64,000 bases of DNA, taken from contig JBAXUE010000002.1 of NCBI GenBank assembly GCA_037129835.1, positions 66,334-130,333 on the forward strand, given 5' to 3'. Numbering within the stretch: position 1 is the stretch's first letter; the number at the start of each line of letters is the position of its first letter. The notes beneath the pieces were generated by a model that did not search any database, was not told where the DNA came from, and saw nothing but the letters and a program-made list of their open reading frames with translations. The DNA comes from a bacterium. Its GTDB lineage: Bacteria; Patescibacteriota; CPR2; UBA1875; CAIMLA01. Both the position numbers and the translations under genes were made by a program. This document shows, piece after piece, positions 43,946 to 51,268 of this stretch.

Positions 43946-44752
43946 TTATAAAACTTTTAATTCTTTCGCACGCTTTATTTGAGAAATATCTTCTGGTATT
44001 TTCCCAGCTAGAGAGTTTCCTTTAAATGATTGAATAATCCTAACTTCTTCAATATCAATATCGACTCGACTGGTAGAGGCTAATACCAGTCCTGGTTCTC
44101 TGATTGTGCCTTTTGACGGACCACCCGTGATAAAGCATTTTCTAGCATCCATAATGATGAGATCTGGTGTATAGATAGTATTCATCTCAGCGACTTTCTC
44201 GGATACTTTGCCGAGATGTAGACTGATTCTCTCTGTTGGCTTCATAAAGCCAATAATAATCTTCAGTGCACCGGTAAAGTCAGCGATAAAGTGGGTTTTG
44301 CAGCAGGGCAAGAGAATAATCTTGTCTACTTCATCCATGATCTTTGGCACTGATACTTTCTTTAGATATTTTCCTTCTGGGATTTGTTTTGTCACCCACT
44401 GATGGTCATCAAAAATGTATATATCCGGTGGTGTCTTGGATTTCTGCAGGTCATAGACACATGCCTTGCACAATGTCTTTTCTGTTGATATAGAGTGATT
44501 ACTGATAGTAAAAGTTGAGCTCTCGCCCACTATCACCCTTTTGGCTCCAGCTGCGAAGACGAGCTCGACAGTAGCTGCCAAGAAGTCTGGTGCTGTCGAT
44601 GCCGGTGATTCATCCGCGGTATTGTAGTTGGGCTTTATTAGTACAGTCTCACCTTTTTTAACGAAATTATCAAAACCACCAATTTCATCAACTGCTTTTT
44701 GAATTGATGGCTTAATATCTTTTTCTGCTTTTACCTTGGCTATATGCATCAT
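43946..44752 (-). CDS. DUF362-like protein
   Basis: GETVLIKPNYNTAD and RVIVGESS match the DUF362 N-terminal pattern. Confidence 0.6.
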   Translation of the reverse strand: MMHIAKVKAEKDIKPSIQKAVDEIGGFDNFVKKGETVLIKPNYNTADESPASTAPDFLAATVELVFAAGAKRVIVGESSTFTISNHSISTEKTLCKACVYDLQKSKTPPDIYIFDDHQWVTKQIPEGKYLKKVSVPKIMDEVDKIILLPCCKTHFIADFTGALKIIIGFMKPTERISLHLGKVSEKVAEMNTIYTPDLIIMDARKCFITGGPSKGTIREPGLVLASTSRVDIDIEEVRIIQSFKGNSLAGKIPEDISQIKRAKELKVL

Positions 44753-44765
44753 AATTTTTTTATCC

Positions 44766-46043
44766 TTATCTGATTATGTCTTCCATCCCATGTTTTAAAA
44801 GTAATCTAATGAACTCCCCAGAGGTAAATATCTTTGCGAAGTTTGGTCCACTAGCGGTAAGGTCCGCACCTTCTTTTTCTGAGAGCAGCTTAAGTAGCGC
44901 TTCGGCTTCTTCTGGGTCAACGATATTTTCTACTGAGTGTGAGCTTTTCCCTCCGATTTGAATAGCTGATTTTCTTCTTTGTTTTCTTGTTTCTGACATG
45001 TAATAATCAGTCATAAATTTATCATAGTCTGGGTCCATCATAGATACCTCTCGATAGATTCCTTCATTGGTTAACTCAGTCATTTCTTCATTTATCTCAT
45101 ATCCGGTCATCATGACAGTGTCGCCTTCACTATTATCTATCCTGATTCTCCCACCCAAAATCTTAACAGCATATCCGTCTTTTAGTGTTCCGTCTGGTTT
45201 TAGTAGCCTTTCTTTGTAAAAGTTTTCAACTCTAGTCTTGAACTCGGCATTCTGCTTATAATGATTGTTATTTTTGATAAAACTGTTTATCAGCTGTCTT
45301 TCGAAATTAGCTATTATCACTTTTGCTAGTCTATCTTTTTCTTCTGGGTCGGTTACTAACTCTGGCTTTGACTCTAGGTGAATATATTCATGAGACAGTG
45401 TATGTGATACATCAAGTAGCTTCATTTGTCGTATTTGCTCTGGTGTATGAATAGCTGTGATCTCTGGGCTCTCAAACTGATATGAAAATTCCTGCATATT
45501 CTTTTTTACGTCTGCATAAGTCATATATGCCTTACCGTCCTCGACGAAGCTAGTAGTGGCAAATACATAATCTTTTCCTGGTTCTAGGTACATGGTGAAT
45601 TCAAATTCGTCCTTAAGAATCTTTTGTAGATCTTTTGTTTCAGTAGAACGACTGTCAGATTCTTTCTTTTCTATTACTTCGCCGTCCACTATTTCGAATA
45701 AATCGGCTGAGAAATCTGCTGCGATATCTGGGACAATTTTTTCCATTGCTTGTTTTACAGATATAGATGCTTCAGCTATCAATGATTGCATAACAGGGAT
45801 AATCTCTGCCTTTTCTTTCTCAATATCTCGGGTCATCTCATTAGCTTCATTTATTTGATCAATACTGTCTTGAGACCCCTTGGGGTCGTTCTCACGGTGT
45901 TTTGTAAAAAATCCCTCTGCTCTTGAGTAATCTTCTGTGCTAGGCAATGTAACATTGCGATCACTCGCTATTGCTTCTGCAATTTTCTTTACTACGAGTC
46001 CTTCTTTGTAGGCTTCGTCGTTGCTAAGTCTTTCTGGTGTCAT
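44766..46043 (-). CDS. hypothetical HExxH protein (425 aa)
   Basis: HTLSHEYIHLE motif. Acidic N-half, no signal peptide. 13-nt gap to the DUF362 gene. Confidence 0.55.
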   Translation of the reverse strand: MTPERLSNDEAYKEGLVVKKIAEAIASDRNVTLPSTEDYSRAEGFFTKHRENDPKGSQDSIDQINEANEMTRDIEKEKAEIIPVMQSLIAEASISVKQAMEKIVPDIAADFSADLFEIVDGEVIEKKESDSRSTETKDLQKILKDEFEFTMYLEPGKDYVFATTSFVEDGKAYMTYADVKKNMQEFSYQFESPEITAIHTPEQIRQMKLLDVSHTLSHEYIHLESKPELVTDPEEKDRLAKVIIANFERQLINSFIKNNNHYKQNAEFKTRVENFYKERLLKPDGTLKDGYAVKILGGRIRIDNSEGDTVMMTGYEINEEMTELTNEGIYREVSMMDPDYDKFMTDYYMSETRKQRRKSAIQIGGKSSHSVENIVDPEEAEALLKLLSEKEGADLTASGPNFAKIFTSGEFIRLLLKHGMEDIIR

Positions 46044-46168
46044 ATTATTCTTCCCTTATTATCAAATATTACCTCAGTTAGTTGTTGTAAACAACCTTAG
46101 TTTACAAAAGTTCGGAGCCCAAGATCGGGCCCCATTAGGGTGCCGTCCATGGGCTCATATTGTTCTAC

Positions 46169-46492
46169 TTACTTCTTCTCGAAGGCTGGTGGTTTTACCC
46201 ACACACCTCTTTTGCGAAGTAGCTTATAGAAACCTTTTAGGATATCTTGGTATTCCGACTCTACAGTCGAAATGTTGAGCTGTTGCCAAGCCTCCTTTAG
46301 TTCTCGATACGAGATGTTGCTCGCTAGTGACTTCCACTGGTCTTGAGCCCCAAAGTAGAAGATATAGCTACTAGGGCCGCATCGCTTTCCGGTGATGTGT
46401 ATCACTATTTCTCGACGACGATTCGACTTGCATAAATAGACTTTGACACAGTTGTGTCGAAAGCATCTGCCGATAAAGCCAAGCTTACTCAC
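46169..46492 (-). CDS. hypothetical protein (107 aa), in G+C-rich islet
   Basis: GTG at 46492 is preceded by GAGGAGGA plus 6 nt. Followed by hairpin GGGCCC/GGGCTC plus a U-rich tract. Confidence 0.5.
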   Translation of the reverse strand: MSKLGFIGRCFRHNCVKVYLCKSNRRREIVIHITGKRCGPSSYIFYFGAQDQWKSLASNISYRELKEAWQQLNISTVESEYQDILKGFYKLLRKRGVWVKPPAFEKK

Positions 46493-46533
46493 GATGGGTC
46501 CTCCTCTCACTAGGGGCAGATTGTGCGACTACT

Positions 46534-46650
46534 CTAGCTGCGGTGCTTCTTCTTCCCTTTTCTTGGGTGAGCAGCAGTTACGGCCTTGCCACAACCTCTG
46601 GCGCAACATTTCCTGCAACGCCGCAGATCCTTTTCGTTACAGATTCGCAT
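46534..46650 (-). CDS. candidate 38-aa Cys/Arg/Lys-rich peptide MRICNEKDLRRCRKCCARGCGKAVTAAHPRKGKKKHRS
   Basis: ATG at 46650 is preceded by GGGGGGAG plus 5 nt. Putative promoter TTGCTC-17-TATTAT upstream. 41 nt upstream of the 107-aa ORF. Confidence 0.4.
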   Translation of the reverse strand: MRICNEKDLRRCRKCCARGCGKAVTAAHPRKGKKKHRS

Positions 46651-46863
46651 GCTCGCTCCCCCCGATAGTAATGGATACCAGACTAGGTGATAATATACTA
46701 AAATATTTGTCAGAGCAAGGTAAATCTGCTCAAAATTAATTAATAATTGTAAATATATTTTGTAATATGCGGCCATTTTCTTTGCATAAAGCCACAAAGG
46801 TTCTCTCAGCTTTTGCTCAGATTTGATGTATACAATATAGATGTCATTTAAACAAGGAAGGAG

Positions 46864-47142
46864 ATGAATGACAAAACCTGGCGAGTAGTGATCGCCGCTA
46901 TCAAGACTTGGCGCCACTGGAGGACACGAATTTCACAAAGAGTTGGTGCTAGTGTGTCGCAAAAGTCGGATAGCAAATACAGTTCAGGGCTAGAAGTACA
47001 TATTCTCAGCTCGGGCAGGGTCACGAAAACCACCACAACTAAATATATATTTTTCATTCCACTCAAAATAATAGAGGCCATCCCCCGGCCTCTATTATTA
47101 TTAATATCAATAATGCAAAAAGCCATCGTTTGGGAACGATAG
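46864..47142 (+). CDS. doubtful ORF (92 aa) in G+C-rich islet
   Basis: AAGGAAGGAG lies right before the ATG, with TTGCTC-17-TATAGA upstream. However, the ORF runs through a strong hairpin (47073-47093) and its C-half is low quality. Confidence 0.25.
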   Translation: MNDKTWRVVIAAIKTWRHWRTRISQRVGASVSQKSDSKYSSGLEVHILSSGRVTKTTTTKYIFFIPLKIIEAIPRPLLLLISIMQKAIVWER

Positions 47143-47269
47143 CTTCCATAGGCATTCCTCTCTGTTGTTGGAATAATAGATGGTTTGCTGTTTGGTCGAA
47201 GTCCTCTGCGATATTACTCGCTCTCTCACCTACTGGTGAGACCCATGGGCTCCATTGTTGCGGTGTTGA

Positions 47270-47500
47270 CTAGCTTGGGAATTTGATTCGCTTGCCAATT
47301 TTTTCGGCTCTTACTGCCTTAAGGAATTCTTCGGGTTCTATCCCAAAGTGCTCCGAGAGCCAGTTTTGAACCTCACAGAGGGCGTAGTTGCGTTCCCACA
47401 ACGTATCTCCTCTAAAGGACTGTGAAGCCAAAGCGATAACCTCCGCTCTGCTAAAACTGTCATAACCGTCTTTGTTGGTACTGTTACTCCCTTTCTTCAT
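47270..47500 (-). CDS. hypothetical protein (76 aa), in G+C-rich islet
   Basis: ATG at 47500 is preceded by GGAGA plus 5 nt. No family recognised. Confidence 0.5.
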   Translation of the reverse strand: MKKGSNSTNKDGYDSFSRAEVIALASQSFRGDTLWERNYALCEVQNWLSEHFGIEPEEFLKAVRAEKIGKRIKFPS

Positions 47501-47631
47501 GATTGTCTCCAATCGCTAAACGCTGGTTTGATCCAACGCTGTCGTCTTATGAACGACAAGAACTGATAGGACTTAACACAAACGATATTATAGTCATTTA
47601 ACGGGGTTTTGTCAATAAGCATCAATAATAA

Positions 47632-47664
47632 AGCCGAGGTGATCTTTCCCCCTCGGTTTTATTT
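47632..47664 (-). terminator. intrinsic terminator of the ABC operon (bidirectional shape)
   Basis: CCGAGG...CCTCGG stem flanked by an A-run and a T-run, starting about 10 nt after the ATPase stop. Confidence 0.7.
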
Positions 47665-47672
47665 AATGGTAA

Positions 47673-48554
47673 TTATTTTGCTACTTTGCCGTCGACTATC
47701 GTGATCGTACGAGTGCAGAGTTTGGCCACTTCTGGATTATGGGTAACAATTATAAATGTCTGCCCGTGCTGATTGAGTCGAACTATAAGATCCATTATTT
47801 CTTTGGTCATTTTGATATCTAGTTCTCCTGTAAGCTCATCACCAAATATAATTGCTGGTTTATTTACTAGAGAGCGAGCTATTGCTACTCTCTGCCGTTG
47901 ACCGCCCGAAAGTTCGTTTGGAGTGTGAGTAAGTCTATCTCCAAGCCCCACAAGCCTTAACGATTTTTCTGCAAGTGCCCTTCGTTCGTTTCTCGGAGTT
48001 TTTCCATAACGGAGTGGTAGCATCACATTTTCTATGGCTGTCAGCGTTGGAATCAGATTGAAAGATTGAAAGACAAAGCCGAGCTCGCTAGATCGGACTT
48101 CTGGTAGTTTGTTTTGACTAATTCCAGTAACATTGACGCCTCGTAGAAATATCTGCCCAGTCGTTGGCTCGTCTAGAAGGCCTAGCATATTTAAAAGAGT
48201 TGATTTCCCAGAACCAGATGGTCCCATAATAGCAACCATCTCCCCCTTTTTAATATCTATGTCCACGCCATTTAGGGCATGGACAACAACCCCTTTTTCA
48301 TTTTTGCCTTCTTTTATTTTTTTACCCGTTAGAAAATGATAAGTTTCGACGTATTTTTCTTTATCAAATAAATCTTGTGCTTTTTCTAGTCTTATCTCAA
48401 TTTCAGAAATTTTTTCAGTATTATTCTTTGAAACTGCTTTTTCATAAGCATGATGAAGTTTGTGGATTGCTTCCTGGGCCTTTATTGCCACCTTCTTATT
48501 CCCCATAATGTAAACCTTGCGAAGGTTATTAAGCTTTAGAATAGTATCGGCCAT
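47673..48554 (-). CDS. ABC transporter ATP-binding protein (MacB/LolD type) with ~65-aa N-terminal insertion
   Basis: GPSGSGKST, LSGGQRQR, IIFGDELTGELD. A helical insert lies between the first beta-strand (ILKLNNLRKVY) and VHALNGVDIDI. Confidence 0.88.
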   Translation of the reverse strand: MADTILKLNNLRKVYIMGNKKVAIKAQEAIHKLHHAYEKAVSKNNTEKISEIEIRLEKAQDLFDKEKYVETYHFLTGKKIKEGKNEKGVVVHALNGVDIDIKKGEMVAIMGPSGSGKSTLLNMLGLLDEPTTGQIFLRGVNVTGISQNKLPEVRSSELGFVFQSFNLIPTLTAIENVMLPLRYGKTPRNERRALAEKSLRLVGLGDRLTHTPNELSGGQRQRVAIARSLVNKPAIIFGDELTGELDIKMTKEIMDLIVRLNQHGQTFIIVTHNPEVAKLCTRTITIVDGKVAK

Positions 48555-48556
48555 GA

Positions 48557-49711
48557 TTATTCCTCCCTCAGTGATTTAACAATACTGATTTTCACCGCAT
48601 AGTAAGCGGGGTAAATACCCGCAATTACGCCGATGGCGAGCGAGAATATCATTGAACCGATAAGTAACCTAGGAGTGAGTAAAAATATCTTGTCCCCAGT
48701 CTGCTCCATATAATAGTTCACTAAATATACAATAACAGCTCCAAGGGCTATCCCGATGGCGCCACCAAAAAATCCGATAACGCCAGCTTCTGTAAGATAT
48801 TCGAGTAATATATTGCGGTTTTTTGCCCCTAGAGCTTTCTTTATCCCTATTTCCTTAGTTCTTTCTGAAATTGACATCGTCATGGTATTGACTATTGATA
48901 GCGTGCCAACAAGAAGTGAGATGATACAAATTCCGTAAATAATTGAGTTAAAAGTTTGCATTGTAGATGCTATTTGGTCTTGAAATTGTTTCGGTCCAAG
49001 AGTATCAACGCCTTTGACCTCTTTCTTTATTTTTTCTGATAATTTATTTGGGTCTACACCTTTTTTAGGATAGGCAATAAAGCCATAAACCAGATCGTCT
49101 GGTTTCGTAGTATTTCTAAGTAATTCGGGTAATTCATTGTACATTATTTCTCTACCATCATGTAAAGAGACGGATATTTGAGTATCAGGTAGAGTGAAAG
49201 TTTTTTCGGCAATGCCAACAACTTCAAAATTTTTACCTCTAATTTTGATATTTTCTCCCACCTTGGCTTTTAGTTTTTTTACTAGGTCTGCGCCGACCAA
49301 TGCCTTGTTACGGTCTGAAGCAGTAATAGCTCGCCCACTAGTAAGTCTAATTTTAAAGCTTTCGTAATCGTTGGATTTTTCGTCAATGCTAATAATGTTT
49401 GCTAGTGGTCCAAGACTAGCAGTGATGTTATCACTAAGTAGTGAATAAGTTTCGGCCGCTACATATGCGACGCCATCGACTTTTTCTATTTCTTTTTTCT
49501 TATCAATCTTTAATGGGCTACTATATGTACTTATTTTGGCAGATATTTCTACTTTGTCCTTATAATATTCTGCCCCTCCATCTACAAGCAAACTCAGTTT
49601 CTCGGCGATAGCTCCCATAACCACAAGGGCCAGGATACCGATGGCGATACCAAAAACCGTCAGTAGTGTTCTGGTTTTTCGTCTCCACATATTTTTTAAG
49701 ATTTCAAACAT
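48557..49711 (-). CDS. ABC transporter permease, MacB/FtsX-like
   Basis: N-terminal TM, periplasmic MacB_PCD-like domain, and a C-terminal FtsX 3-TM bundle (ERTKEIGIKKALGA). Confidence 0.85.
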   Translation of the reverse strand: MFEILKNMWRRKTRTLLTVFGIAIGILALVVMGAIAEKLSLLVDGGAEYYKDKVEISAKISTYSSPLKIDKKKEIEKVDGVAYVAAETYSLLSDNITASLGPLANIISIDEKSNDYESFKIRLTSGRAITASDRNKALVGADLVKKLKAKVGENIKIRGKNFEVVGIAEKTFTLPDTQISVSLHDGREIMYNELPELLRNTTKPDDLVYGFIAYPKKGVDPNKLSEKIKKEVKGVDTLGPKQFQDQIASTMQTFNSIIYGICIISLLVGTLSIVNTMTMSISERTKEIGIKKALGAKNRNILLEYLTEAGVIGFFGGAIGIALGAVIVYLVNYYMEQTGDKIFLLTPRLLIGSMIFSLAIGVIAGIYPAYYAVKISIVKSLREE

Positions 49712-49762
49712 TTAATTCCTTATGATTATGAAAATATTTTAACATAATTATGAATGATAAAT

Positions 49763-49816
49763 AATAAAAAGAAAAGGCCCGCACTAGGGTAGGTGTGAAC
49801 CTTCTCTTTGCGGGCC
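49763..49816 (-). terminator. intrinsic terminator closing G+C-rich islet 3
   Basis: 8-bp stem GGCCCGCA/TGCGGGCC followed on the - strand by TTTTCTTTTTATT. Lies 13 nt after the stop at 49829. Confidence 0.7.
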
Positions 49817-49828
49817 GTTGTGTCTTGT

Positions 49829-50191
49829 TTAGAACAGGGAGGGCTGGTCTTTCCCAGCAGCATCAGACGTATCTGATACTTGCAGTTTGTCGATAGGTCC
49901 CTTTGGAAACCTCTCGACAAACTCCTCGAGATTACTGTCTTGCACCAACCAGCTCTGTTCTATCTTGCGATTGAACTTCCTACTCAGTGCATTGCTGATG
50001 ATGTGTGAGAAGTTCACAGTAGTAGTGAACTCCCGGGGACGAGCGTGCCACGCGTCGTGTTGCTTCTGCGTGACATAGATACCGACACTCAAGCCGGCGA
50101 CCTTGAATACCCCGATGTAGGGGCAATTGGGTCTGGTGACCTTCATTTTTGTTACATCTGTAGTGCTAGTGCGTTTGGCCAAGCCAAACAC
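49829..50191 (-). CDS. hypothetical protein (up to 120 aa), in G+C-rich islet
   Basis: GTG at 50191 abuts the upstream TGA (possible coupling). An alternative ATG is at 50146. No family recognised. Confidence 0.45.
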   Translation of the reverse strand: MFGLAKRTSTTDVTKMKVTRPNCPYIGVFKVAGLSVGIYVTQKQHDAWHARPREFTTTVNFSHIISNALSRKFNRKIEQSWLVQDSNLEEFVERFPKGPIDKLQVSDTSDAAGKDQPSLF

Positions 50192-50196
50192 CCCCT

Positions 50197-50550
50197 TCAG
50201 TTTAGTGAGATGTACAGGTCGGTTCTTGCTCTTTCAGGTTCGTGCCGGGCTGCCATAAAGAGTAAAACAATCGCTCTTCTGCTGGCCAAAACCAGTGTTT
50301 CAGGATCTTTGGTTGTTGGGCCGAAGCAACCGCTTTCGATGTACTCGATCTGATCGCCGATAATCTCAGCAATCGTGATCATGTCATCGGGCACTTGATA
50401 ATGTGCCGCGAAGTTTAGTACCGCCTCTCTTTGGACAGAAGCCGTTAACAGTACAGTAATACTGAGTTCAGGCTCGAGACCTAGATCTTCACAGCGTTGA
50501 ACTAGCATGTCTTGGACTGCCCCAAGTATTAGTGTGCTTAAAGCCGCCAT
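50197..50550 (-). CDS. hypothetical protein (117 aa), in G+C-rich islet
   Basis: ATG at 50550 is preceded by GAGGGGA plus 6 nt. The listed 5' extension lacks an SD. Confidence 0.5.
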   Translation of the reverse strand: MAALSTLILGAVQDMLVQRCEDLGLEPELSITVLLTASVQREAVLNFAAHYQVPDDMITIAEIIGDQIEYIESGCFGPTTKDPETLVLASRRAIVLLFMAARHEPERARTDLYISLN

Positions 50551-50640
50551 TGACAATCCCCTCGTTTCTAGACGAATTGTGTAGGTACAATGTAAATTAC
50601 TATACCACTTTATGGTATATTTGTAAAGCATGATTTACGC

Positions 50641-50670
50641 AAAAAACAGCCCTAAGTCGGGGCTGTTTGT
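50641..50670 (-). terminator. intrinsic (bidirectional-shaped) terminator
   Basis: AAAAAACAGCCC-TAAGTC-GGGGCTGTTTGT. On the - strand the stem is followed by TTTTTTG. Confidence 0.7.
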
Positions 50671-50842
50671 AATAAATTGCAGGTTGAGCCGCACTGTAGG
50701 GTAACAGTAGTGCGCGGCTTTGCCCATAGGCGAATCCTCTCTCATGAAGGGTTGTGGTATCTTACTTGAGTTATTGAGATTGACCTAATCCCAGAATCAA
50801 ACTGTTTCCAGTTACCCTTGATTCTGAGTGCAGAGTTTTGGG

Positions 50843-51118
50843 TTATCTTTTTTGGAAGAAGACTTTGCGACCAAGGTCCTGTGGTTTACAAACGGCCCAG
50901 AAAAGACTAAGTCCCATCTCGGATAAACCAAGAAGGTCATCTAGTAATTCTGGGTTATTCCATCGAACCTCTTTGCCGGCATACTTCTTGAGTAGTTCGT
51001 CGACGTCCCTGATATTTTGGTCTCTTTCGATTTCACGCCGTTGTTCTTCAAGGTCTACTAAGACCTCAATGTGATACCCATTACGCTGCAGAGCTTGTAA
51101 AAGAGCTAATTGAGTCAT
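50843..51118 (-). CDS. hypothetical protein (91 aa), in G+C-rich islet
   Basis: ATG at 51118 is preceded by AAGGGAG plus 5 nt. No family recognised. Confidence 0.5.
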   Translation of the reverse strand: MTQLALLQALQRNGYHIEVLVDLEEQRREIERDQNIRDVDELLKKYAGKEVRWNNPELLDDLLGLSEMGLSLFWAVCKPQDLGRKVFFQKR

Positions 51119-51268
51119 AAAGACTCCCTTCGTTTGACAGCACTTCGCAATATTGCGGAGTAACTGCATCATCACGTTGCCGCGACTCATGTGCGGTATT
51201 ATACTCTTTTTTACCTATATGTCAAGATAATTTACTGTTACAAGTTTTTGTTATAGGAATAGGTTGCT

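Follow-up and report, generated by a model that had tools for sequence, protein, structure and literature searches.

Prokaryotic one-domain zinc-finger micro-proteins, such as the C(P)XCG proteins of Haloferax volcanii, are shorter than 70 amino acids (aa), cytoplasmic and often unannotated, and a cysteine cluster is their sole recognisable feature (PMC6562870, PMC11241148, PMC10716476). Some of them, Brz being one example (PMC2253796), have their genes immediately upstream of that of their partner or target. Here we analysed a 38-codon open reading frame (ORF) on the minus strand of a 64,000-nucleotide (nt) stretch of a Patescibacteriota genome (contig JBAXUE010000002.1; hereafter the window), which encodes a cysteine-rich, highly basic peptide. 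An earlier note on this DNA, made from the letters alone, had suggested that the peptide could be a zinc-ribbon-like micro-protein or nucleic-acid binder, or a secreted disulfide-rich antimicrobial peptide. In genomes of the Candidate Phyla Radiation, a large share of the genes lacks an assigned function, and annotation systematically overlooks small ORFs; if real, the 38-codon ORF would be another unannotated micro-protein gene in this radiation.

We propose that the ORF encodes a lineage-restricted micro-protein, that it opens a two-gene unit as the first cistron, and that its product would be a cytoplasmic metal- or nucleic-acid binder. We assign this statement as worded a probability of about 0.45. 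The narrower claim, that the ORF is a real small gene restricted to this lineage and yields a functional peptide on translation, has in our judgement slightly better than an even chance, and the metal- or nucleic-acid-binding role would carry about half of that weight. In the proposed mechanism, the Cys cluster (C4, C12-x2-C15, C16, C20, and possibly H28) could chelate a metal ion, the C-terminal tail could contact nucleic acid or another polyanion, and the peptide may act jointly with the 107-aa protein encoded downstream.

Among known systems, the zinc-finger micro-proteins, described mainly from Haloferax, come closest: the peptide resembles them in its size, in the clustering of its cysteines and in having escaped annotation. 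However, that class needs two C(P)XCG or CxxC knuckles, whereas the peptide has one CxxC, is far more basic, is bacterial and shows no sequence homology to the class. Because the pair of C(P)XCG motifs is absent, as is homology, the peptide may work like a zinc-finger micro-protein but is not a member. A canonical zinc ribbon likewise needs two CxxC knuckles. The zinc-ribbon-like or nucleic-acid-binding role proposed in the earlier note is compatible with the evidence: the coding pattern, the charge and the CxxC plus additional Cys/His residues fit it, but the peptide has one knuckle, is not a canonical ribbon and matches no family model.

The ribosomal protein bL36 (RpmJ) is similar in being 38 aa long and very basic, with a CxxC near residues 11–14 and a basic, His-containing C-terminal tail. 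The ligand spacing of bL36 is C-x2-C-x12-C-x4-H, in contrast to C-x2-C-C-x3-C-x7-H in the peptide, and the ORF lies outside a ribosomal-protein operon. Identity with bL36 was rejected: no Pfam or NCBIfam match was obtained even at E up to 10, and BLASTP against Escherichia coli RpmJ gave E 0.19 over 12 residues.

Sequence and signals of the 38-codon ORF

The ORF and the elements next to it, all on the minus strand, are listed in the direction of reading.

46651..46825, minus strand: AT-rich block conserved in a diverged strain, putative promoter or 5' leader
46656..46663, minus strand: Shine-Dalgarno (SD)-like GGGGGGAG, 5 nt from the ATG of the 38-codon ORF
46534..46650, minus strand: 38-codon ORF with its TAG stop, encoding MRICNEKDLRRCRKCCARGCGKAVTAAHPRKGKKKHRS
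46493..46533, minus strand: 41-nt spacer, within which the 107-aa gene has its SD (AGGAGG, 46505-46500)
46169..46492, minus strand: 107-aa orphan gene, GTG start at 46492, end at 46169
46113..46134, minus strand: hairpin of terminator type (TGGGGCCCGATCTTGGGCTCCG, then AACTTTTG) behind the 107-aa gene, found by a terminator scan

The description in the earlier note proved largely accurate. The frame that it named was reproduced by exact translation of the minus strand from 46650 to 46534, with the ATG at 46650-46648 and the TAG at 46536-46534. The note had counted six cysteines; there are five, at positions 4, 12, 15, 16 and 20. The peptide also contains 2 His, 14 Lys/Arg and 2 acidic residues, giving a net charge of +12. 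It has one CxxC (C12-R-K-C15), followed by C16-x3-C20-G, and no CPxCG, and its C-terminal tail is polybasic (RKGKKKHRS). The hydropathy reached at most 0.49 over 11 residues, with a grand average of -1.2. No hydrophobic segment, signal peptide, double-glycine leader or cleavage motif was found in the peptide, which makes a Sec- or ABC-exported product unlikely; the product would be a cytoplasmic micro-protein.

The composition of the peptide is an outlier. Among the 156 ATG-first ORFs of 30–60 aa in the window, none reached 13% Cys, one reached the charge density of the peptide, and none combined both traits; the mean Cys content of window proteins was 0.7%. The claimed SD was confirmed at 46663-46656: GGGGGGAG includes a GGAG core, and two more of its G's could wobble-pair with the anti-SD. 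An ORF with an SD alone proves nothing, because such ORFs are frequent by chance (the non-genic frames of the window contain 40 ATG ORFs that have 38 codons or more and a 4-nt SD core).

Conservation of the reading frame in strain L006

A 372-kb ENA contig carries identical (100%) DNA, as do smaller contigs from Logan and JGI. Five contigs of the same strain (L001–L005) were uninformative because they are 100% identical, and the sole diverged comparator was strain L006 (JGI contig Ga0194043_1040798, 1,872 nt). The L006 alignment spans window positions 47223 to 45355 and contains 136 differences (~7%).

In L006, the ORF keeps its length, ATG, SD and TAG; GGGGGGAG is unchanged, and the 2 nt immediately before the ATG differ. 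Six substitutions were found within the ORF, four synonymous (R10 CGG>CGA, V24 GTA>GTT, T25 ACT>ACC, G32 GGG>GGA) and two non-synonymous (A27T, P29L). Codons 1–23, which contain the Cys cluster, hold a single, synonymous substitution, and the tail KKKHRS is invariant. The earlier note had held that a non-conserved frame or a missing translation signal would speak against the peptide; both the frame and the signals are kept, together with an excess of synonymous changes. This general signature of a coding gene (frame, start and stop kept; synonymous excess) comes from L006 alone.

The proportions of synonymous (pS) and non-synonymous (pN) differences between the window and L006 were as follows.

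38-codon ORF, own frame: pS 0.161, pN 0.022, pN/pS 0.14
38-codon ORF, two other sense frames: pS 0.037 and 0.043, pN 0.039 and 0.059, pN/pS 1.05 and 1.38
425-aa gene (partial): pS 0.235, pN 0.035, pN/pS 0.15
107-aa gene: pS 0.214, pN 0.076, pN/pS 0.35
Upstream 267 nt of the 127-aa frame: pS 0.053, pN 0.033, pN/pS 0.62
77-aa ORF, 46848-47081, minus strand: pS 0.073, pN 0.091, pN/pS 1.25
92-aa ORF, 46864-47142, plus strand: pS 0.093, pN 0.062, pN/pS 0.67

The pN/pS of the 38-codon ORF is close to that of the flanking 425-aa gene. Judging from these substitutions, the 107-aa gene is under purifying selection, and its off frames gave pN/pS of about 1. Gene calls conflict between 46848 and 47142, where ENA/Logan reported the plus-strand 92-aa ORF and JGI a minus-strand ORF of 78 aa. 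These pipeline-called ORFs evolve near-neutrally and are probably not genes. The low pN/pS of the 38-codon ORF is therefore not a property of the whole locus, since the adjacent called ORFs are near-neutral (1.25 and 0.67).

A Fisher test of the substitution pattern in the 38-codon ORF gave p = 0.02. In simulations that placed six random substitutions at transition fractions of 0.33–0.83, an intact ORF with no more than two amino-acid changes was obtained in 1.9–6.5% of trials, and in 3.4–3.7% at the transition fraction of the locus itself.

Other frames over the ORF were considered. Two antisense frames are open in the window and gain one and two stops in L006; an antisense 98-aa ORF (46443-46739, plus strand) was rejected for its stops in L006. 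The 38-codon frame itself continues open upstream to a GTG at 46917, giving 127 aa. This extended ORF was rejected, its upstream part having neither a coding substitution pattern nor an SD, and the ATG at 46650 is favoured as the start because the part of the 127-aa frame before it shows conservation of its nucleotides without a coding pattern.

Divergence from L006 is patchy, with 0/154 differences at 47070-47223, 4/175 at 46651-46825 and ~9–11% elsewhere; the conserved block at 46651-46825 adjoins DNA of ~9% divergence (46830-47069). This patchiness makes local rate comparisons unsafe and leaves the codon-position pattern as the sole robust signal. The conserved block is likely a promoter, an operator or a long 5' leader. 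Between and behind the two ORFs, the 41-nt spacer has one difference to L006, and the hairpin at 46113-46134 keeps its stem and differs in its loop.

An alternative explanation is that the 107-aa gene has a conserved regulatory or 5' untranslated region that includes the GC-rich DNA at 46534-46700; the frame, the SD-like G-run and the Cys codons in it would be accidental and the 4:2 pattern a sampling fluke. We regard a chance ORF of this kind as doubtful, but it stays a serious rival because the evidence is one pairwise comparison, with a coding-pattern p of only 0.03–0.07. The 127 open codons, and three frames open over 117 nt, are what GC-rich DNA would give; however, the 38-codon frame is the only one open in both strains. 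The adjoining 175-nt block is conserved without coding, and the ORF might merely extend it. Yet the block is low in both pS and pN, whereas synonymous sites in the ORF changed at the neutral rate (0.16) and non-synonymous sites 7-fold more slowly. Likewise, the number of comparable ORFs with a 4-nt SD core agrees with an accident, but such an accident would also have to account for the Cys and charge outliers and for an SD conserved at an ideal distance from the ATG. Nor does stable RNA structure explain the conservation (z +0.21). Finally, a chance ORF would be expected to have neither homologues nor gene calls and to gain no support from host codon usage, as is the case here.

The last of these observations, with several others, weighs against a translated small gene. 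Scored by codon usage, the 38-codon frame reached a log-odds of -0.14 per codon, lower than 99.8% of equally long pieces of real genes, and it was not the top-scoring of the six frames. A low score is expected because the ORF is rich in Cys, Arg and Lys and has a third-position GC content (GC3) of 0.55 against 0.35 for the genome, but it still gives no support. The support from substitutions comes from six changes in one diverged comparator, with a nominal p of about 0.02–0.07, and recombination could distort local rates at the locus. A plausible promoter had also been claimed; the consensus promoter scan gave no minus-strand site of at least 9/12 before the ORF, and the best candidate, chosen by eye inside the conserved upstream block, would be a weak one (TTGCTC at 46718-46713, a 17-nt spacer and TATTAT at 46695-46690; 8/12).

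Homology searches gave no support either. Among 5.8 billion predicted proteins, none matched the 127-aa frame, of which the peptide is a part, even with E values up to 10 allowed, and no gene caller or exact record has the 38-aa peptide. In the window, the only match to a degenerate pattern of the Cys core was the peptide itself, and viral contigs had none. No family in the profile libraries matched the peptide above threshold; the best Pfam hit was B-box (E 0.061, 13.9 bits against a cutoff of 27), which was lost with the L006 variant. There were no sequence matches in the PDB, and the AlphaFold2 (AF2) model of the peptide had a mean predicted local distance difference test (pLDDT) score of 59, too poor for judging ligand geometry.

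The locus was also searched for RNA elements. Rfam gave 0 matches across the whole window at the gathering threshold and only chance-level matches on 45900-47800 at E up to 10, and the ARAGORN tRNA search gave 0 matches.

The 107-aa gene and the two-gene unit

Consistent with the earlier note, the ORF is followed by a 107-aa gene running from GTG 46492 to 46169, with its own SD AGGAGG 7 nt upstream of the GTG. The layout is operon-like, and we propose that the 38-codon ORF is the first cistron of a unit co-transcribed with this gene. The order would be the conserved upstream block, the SD and 38-codon ORF, the 41-nt spacer, the SD and 107-aa ORF, and the hairpin at 46113-46134, which would close the unit. 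The unit lies in a GC-richer orphan island (46–52% GC at 46000-46700, compared with a genome average of ~38%) of a Patescibacteria-like chromosome.

NCBI and JGI annotated the 107-aa gene independently, and the ENA/Logan callers missed it. The flanking products in NCBI are named 'MAG: hypothetical protein WCP14_01985/01990 [bacterium]', and the 107-aa product is identical to WCP14_01990. Its homologues form only two clusters, at 100% and 83% identity, and a scan of JGI metagenomes with the protein returned only the 83% locus, which is that of L006. No homologues were found in GTDB species representatives or in viral contigs. HMMER over 1.84 billion representatives gave one further match, to a 461-aa repetitive protein over ~40 residues (E 1e-5), which was judged spurious. 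Sequence searches of Pfam, PHROGs, NCBIfam, PADLOC and the PDB gave nothing above threshold for the 38-aa and 107-aa products, or for the product of a 76-aa ORF further upstream.

The AF2 model of the 107-aa protein (pLDDT 69, predicted template modelling score 0.57) has four beta-strands followed by three helices, and gave weak matches to folds of the Pur-alpha/PC4/Whirly type. As a lead only, the modelled fold weakly resembles the PUR/PC4/Whirly single-stranded nucleic-acid binders. Together with the polycationic peptide, this suggests that the two products form a small nucleic-acid-directed pair; the translation of the peptide, its metal and nucleic-acid binding and its partnership with the 107-aa protein are what we infer.

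The same arrangement would suit a regulatory upstream ORF or leader peptide. Here the act of translation would matter, through pausing at Cys or Arg/Lys codons or through translational coupling that would free the SD of the downstream gene, and the peptide would not be the functional product. Cys-rich leader ORFs are known in mycobacteria as cysteine-responsive attenuators. Such attenuators have a run of Cys codons, an alternative structure and a downstream Cys-metabolism operon. In favour of a leader, the ORF seems to share a transcript with the 107-aa gene, which starts 41 nt after it, and it contains a run of AAG/AAA/AGA codons and five Cys codons, which are dispersed and include a CC doublet. 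Nothing recognisable connects the 107-aa gene with cysteine metabolism. Both the minimum free energy (MFE) and the centroid folds pair the leader (about 46679-46664) with the sequence around the SD for the 107-aa gene (about 46515-46499). However, the folded 208 nt (leader, 38-codon ORF and spacer) were no more stable than shuffled sequences (z +0.21; 115/200 shuffles as stable), and in the DNA that separates the two ORFs a scan found neither a terminator nor an antiterminator. Conservation of amino acids beyond the Cys codons (pN 0.022) also exceeds what a pure pausing leader would need. We consider a leader peptide unlikely.

The cassette of the 38-codon and 107-aa ORFs is known from two closely related strains only. 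Three relatives of the adjacent 425-aa gene were found at 37–41% identity, none of them in GTDB representatives, and the nearest comes from a 'Patescibacteria group bacterium'. The cassette is absent beside these relatives, because their upstream spacers are short (94–160 nt) and their neighbours are unrelated. The GC shift and the patchy distribution make horizontal acquisition possible. In a more specific form of the proposal, which we regard as improbable, the peptide and the 107-aa protein would constitute an undescribed two-component nucleic-acid-binding module, a one-knuckle Cys/His metal-binding polycationic micro-protein with a PUR/Whirly-like single-strand binder, recently acquired or born de novo within the GC-richer island of an ultra-small Patescibacteria genome. 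If true, the module might act on nucleic acids of a host or episymbiont, or be a mobile-element or defence-related factor. A Cys-rich polycationic peptide and a possible single-strand binder are tractable for synthesis and in-vitro assays despite the uncultivated host. The biological reach of the finding is narrow (two carrier strains), and no long-standing question is opened by it.

The ABC transporter neighbourhood and flanking genes

The window represents a cellular chromosome, with genes for topoisomerase I, EngA/Der, a P-type ATPase and restriction-type functions, and almost all of its genes are on the minus strand. The ORF lies in a 1.6-kb gap (46044-47672) between an ABC ATPase gene and the 425-aa gene; the gap contains only orphan ORFs, and its DNA has no similarity to phage or plasmid records. 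The features upstream of the conserved block are as follows.

48557-49711, minus strand: permease with MacB_PCD/FtsX domains
47673-48554, minus strand: ABC ATPase (ABC_tran)
~47655-47625, minus strand: terminator-like hairpin with a T-run, read by eye and unreported by the terminator scan
47615-47587, minus strand: perfect sigma-70 promoter TTGACA-17-TATAAT (12/12), from the promoter scan
47500-47270, minus strand: 76-aa orphan ORF (MKKGSNSTNKDGYDSF...), with a GGAG SD
47272-47060, minus strand: strongly structured 3' region of the 76-aa ORF, with two hairpin terminators
47086-47073, minus strand: terminator reported by the scan

The earlier note had placed a MacB-type ABC pair about 1 kb away. 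Position and strand are as described, the stop of the ATPase gene (47673) being 1,022 nt upstream of the ATG of the 38-codon ORF, but a shared transcription unit was not borne out. Two terminators, a consensus promoter and the 76-aa ORF intervene, and the ABC pair is therefore a separate transcription unit.

These results bear on the proposal that the peptide is a secreted disulfide-rich antimicrobial peptide or a precursor of a ribosomally synthesised and post-translationally modified peptide (RiPP), with the ABC pair as exporter and the 107-aa protein as immunity factor or partner. SCIFF and other RiPP precursors and cationic ABC-exported bacteriocins are likewise short, Cys-rich and located near ABC transporters, and the peptide is small and cationic, with an ABC permease and ATPase ~1 kb away on the same strand and a conserved HExxH protein (the 425-aa gene) directly downstream. 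However, neither a leader of the signal-peptide or double-glycine type nor a hydrophobic stretch is present in the peptide, and the ABC pair lies upstream, insulated by the hairpins, the 12/12 promoter and the 76-aa ORF. No bacteriocin, SCIFF or RiPP model of NCBIfam, Pfam or PADLOC matched, and homologues of the 425-aa HExxH protein occur in other Patescibacteria without the cassette. In the region 43946-51190, a scan of 10 proteins found no radical-SAM, lanthipeptide or C39-peptidase domain, and the MacB_PCD/FtsX and ABC_tran pair itself is without a peptidase domain.

Membership in the SCIFF/radical-SAM RiPPs was rejected, as neither a precursor model match nor a Radical_SAM domain was obtained in these proteins. 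Membership in the ABC-exported bacteriocins was rejected as well, given the lack of a leader, a maturase or a peptidase-type exporter and an ABC pair that forms its own MacB/FtsX unit. We consider the secreted-peptide proposal highly improbable, and a cytoplasmic micro-protein remains the reading that we prefer.

The region at 47060-47272 is strongly structured, with several hairpins (MFE -69.1 kcal/mol, z -4.5; 0/200 shuffles as stable). L006 is identical to the window over 47070-47223, compared with the locus average of ~7% divergence. The region could be a 3' untranslated region or a small RNA, and its only Rfam match was a chance-level one to FopS. The 76-aa ORF under the 12/12 promoter was called by one pipeline only. 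Reading on along the minus strand, the structured region is followed by ~240 nt of fast-evolving DNA, the 175-nt conserved AT-rich block, the 38-codon ORF and the 107-aa ORF.

A second GC-richer (45–53%) island was observed at 49712-51268, directly upstream of the ABC permease gene. It contains three orphan minus-strand ORFs (120, 144 and 115 aa) without family matches and resembles the island of the 38-codon ORF. On the other side of the unit, no Pfam family covers the 425-aa neighbour (44766-46043, minus strand). Across four homologues at 37–41% identity, its HEYxH motif (H218, E219, Y220, H222) is invariant and a GYExNEE block is conserved, and the protein may represent an undescribed zinc-metalloprotease family of Patescibacteria.
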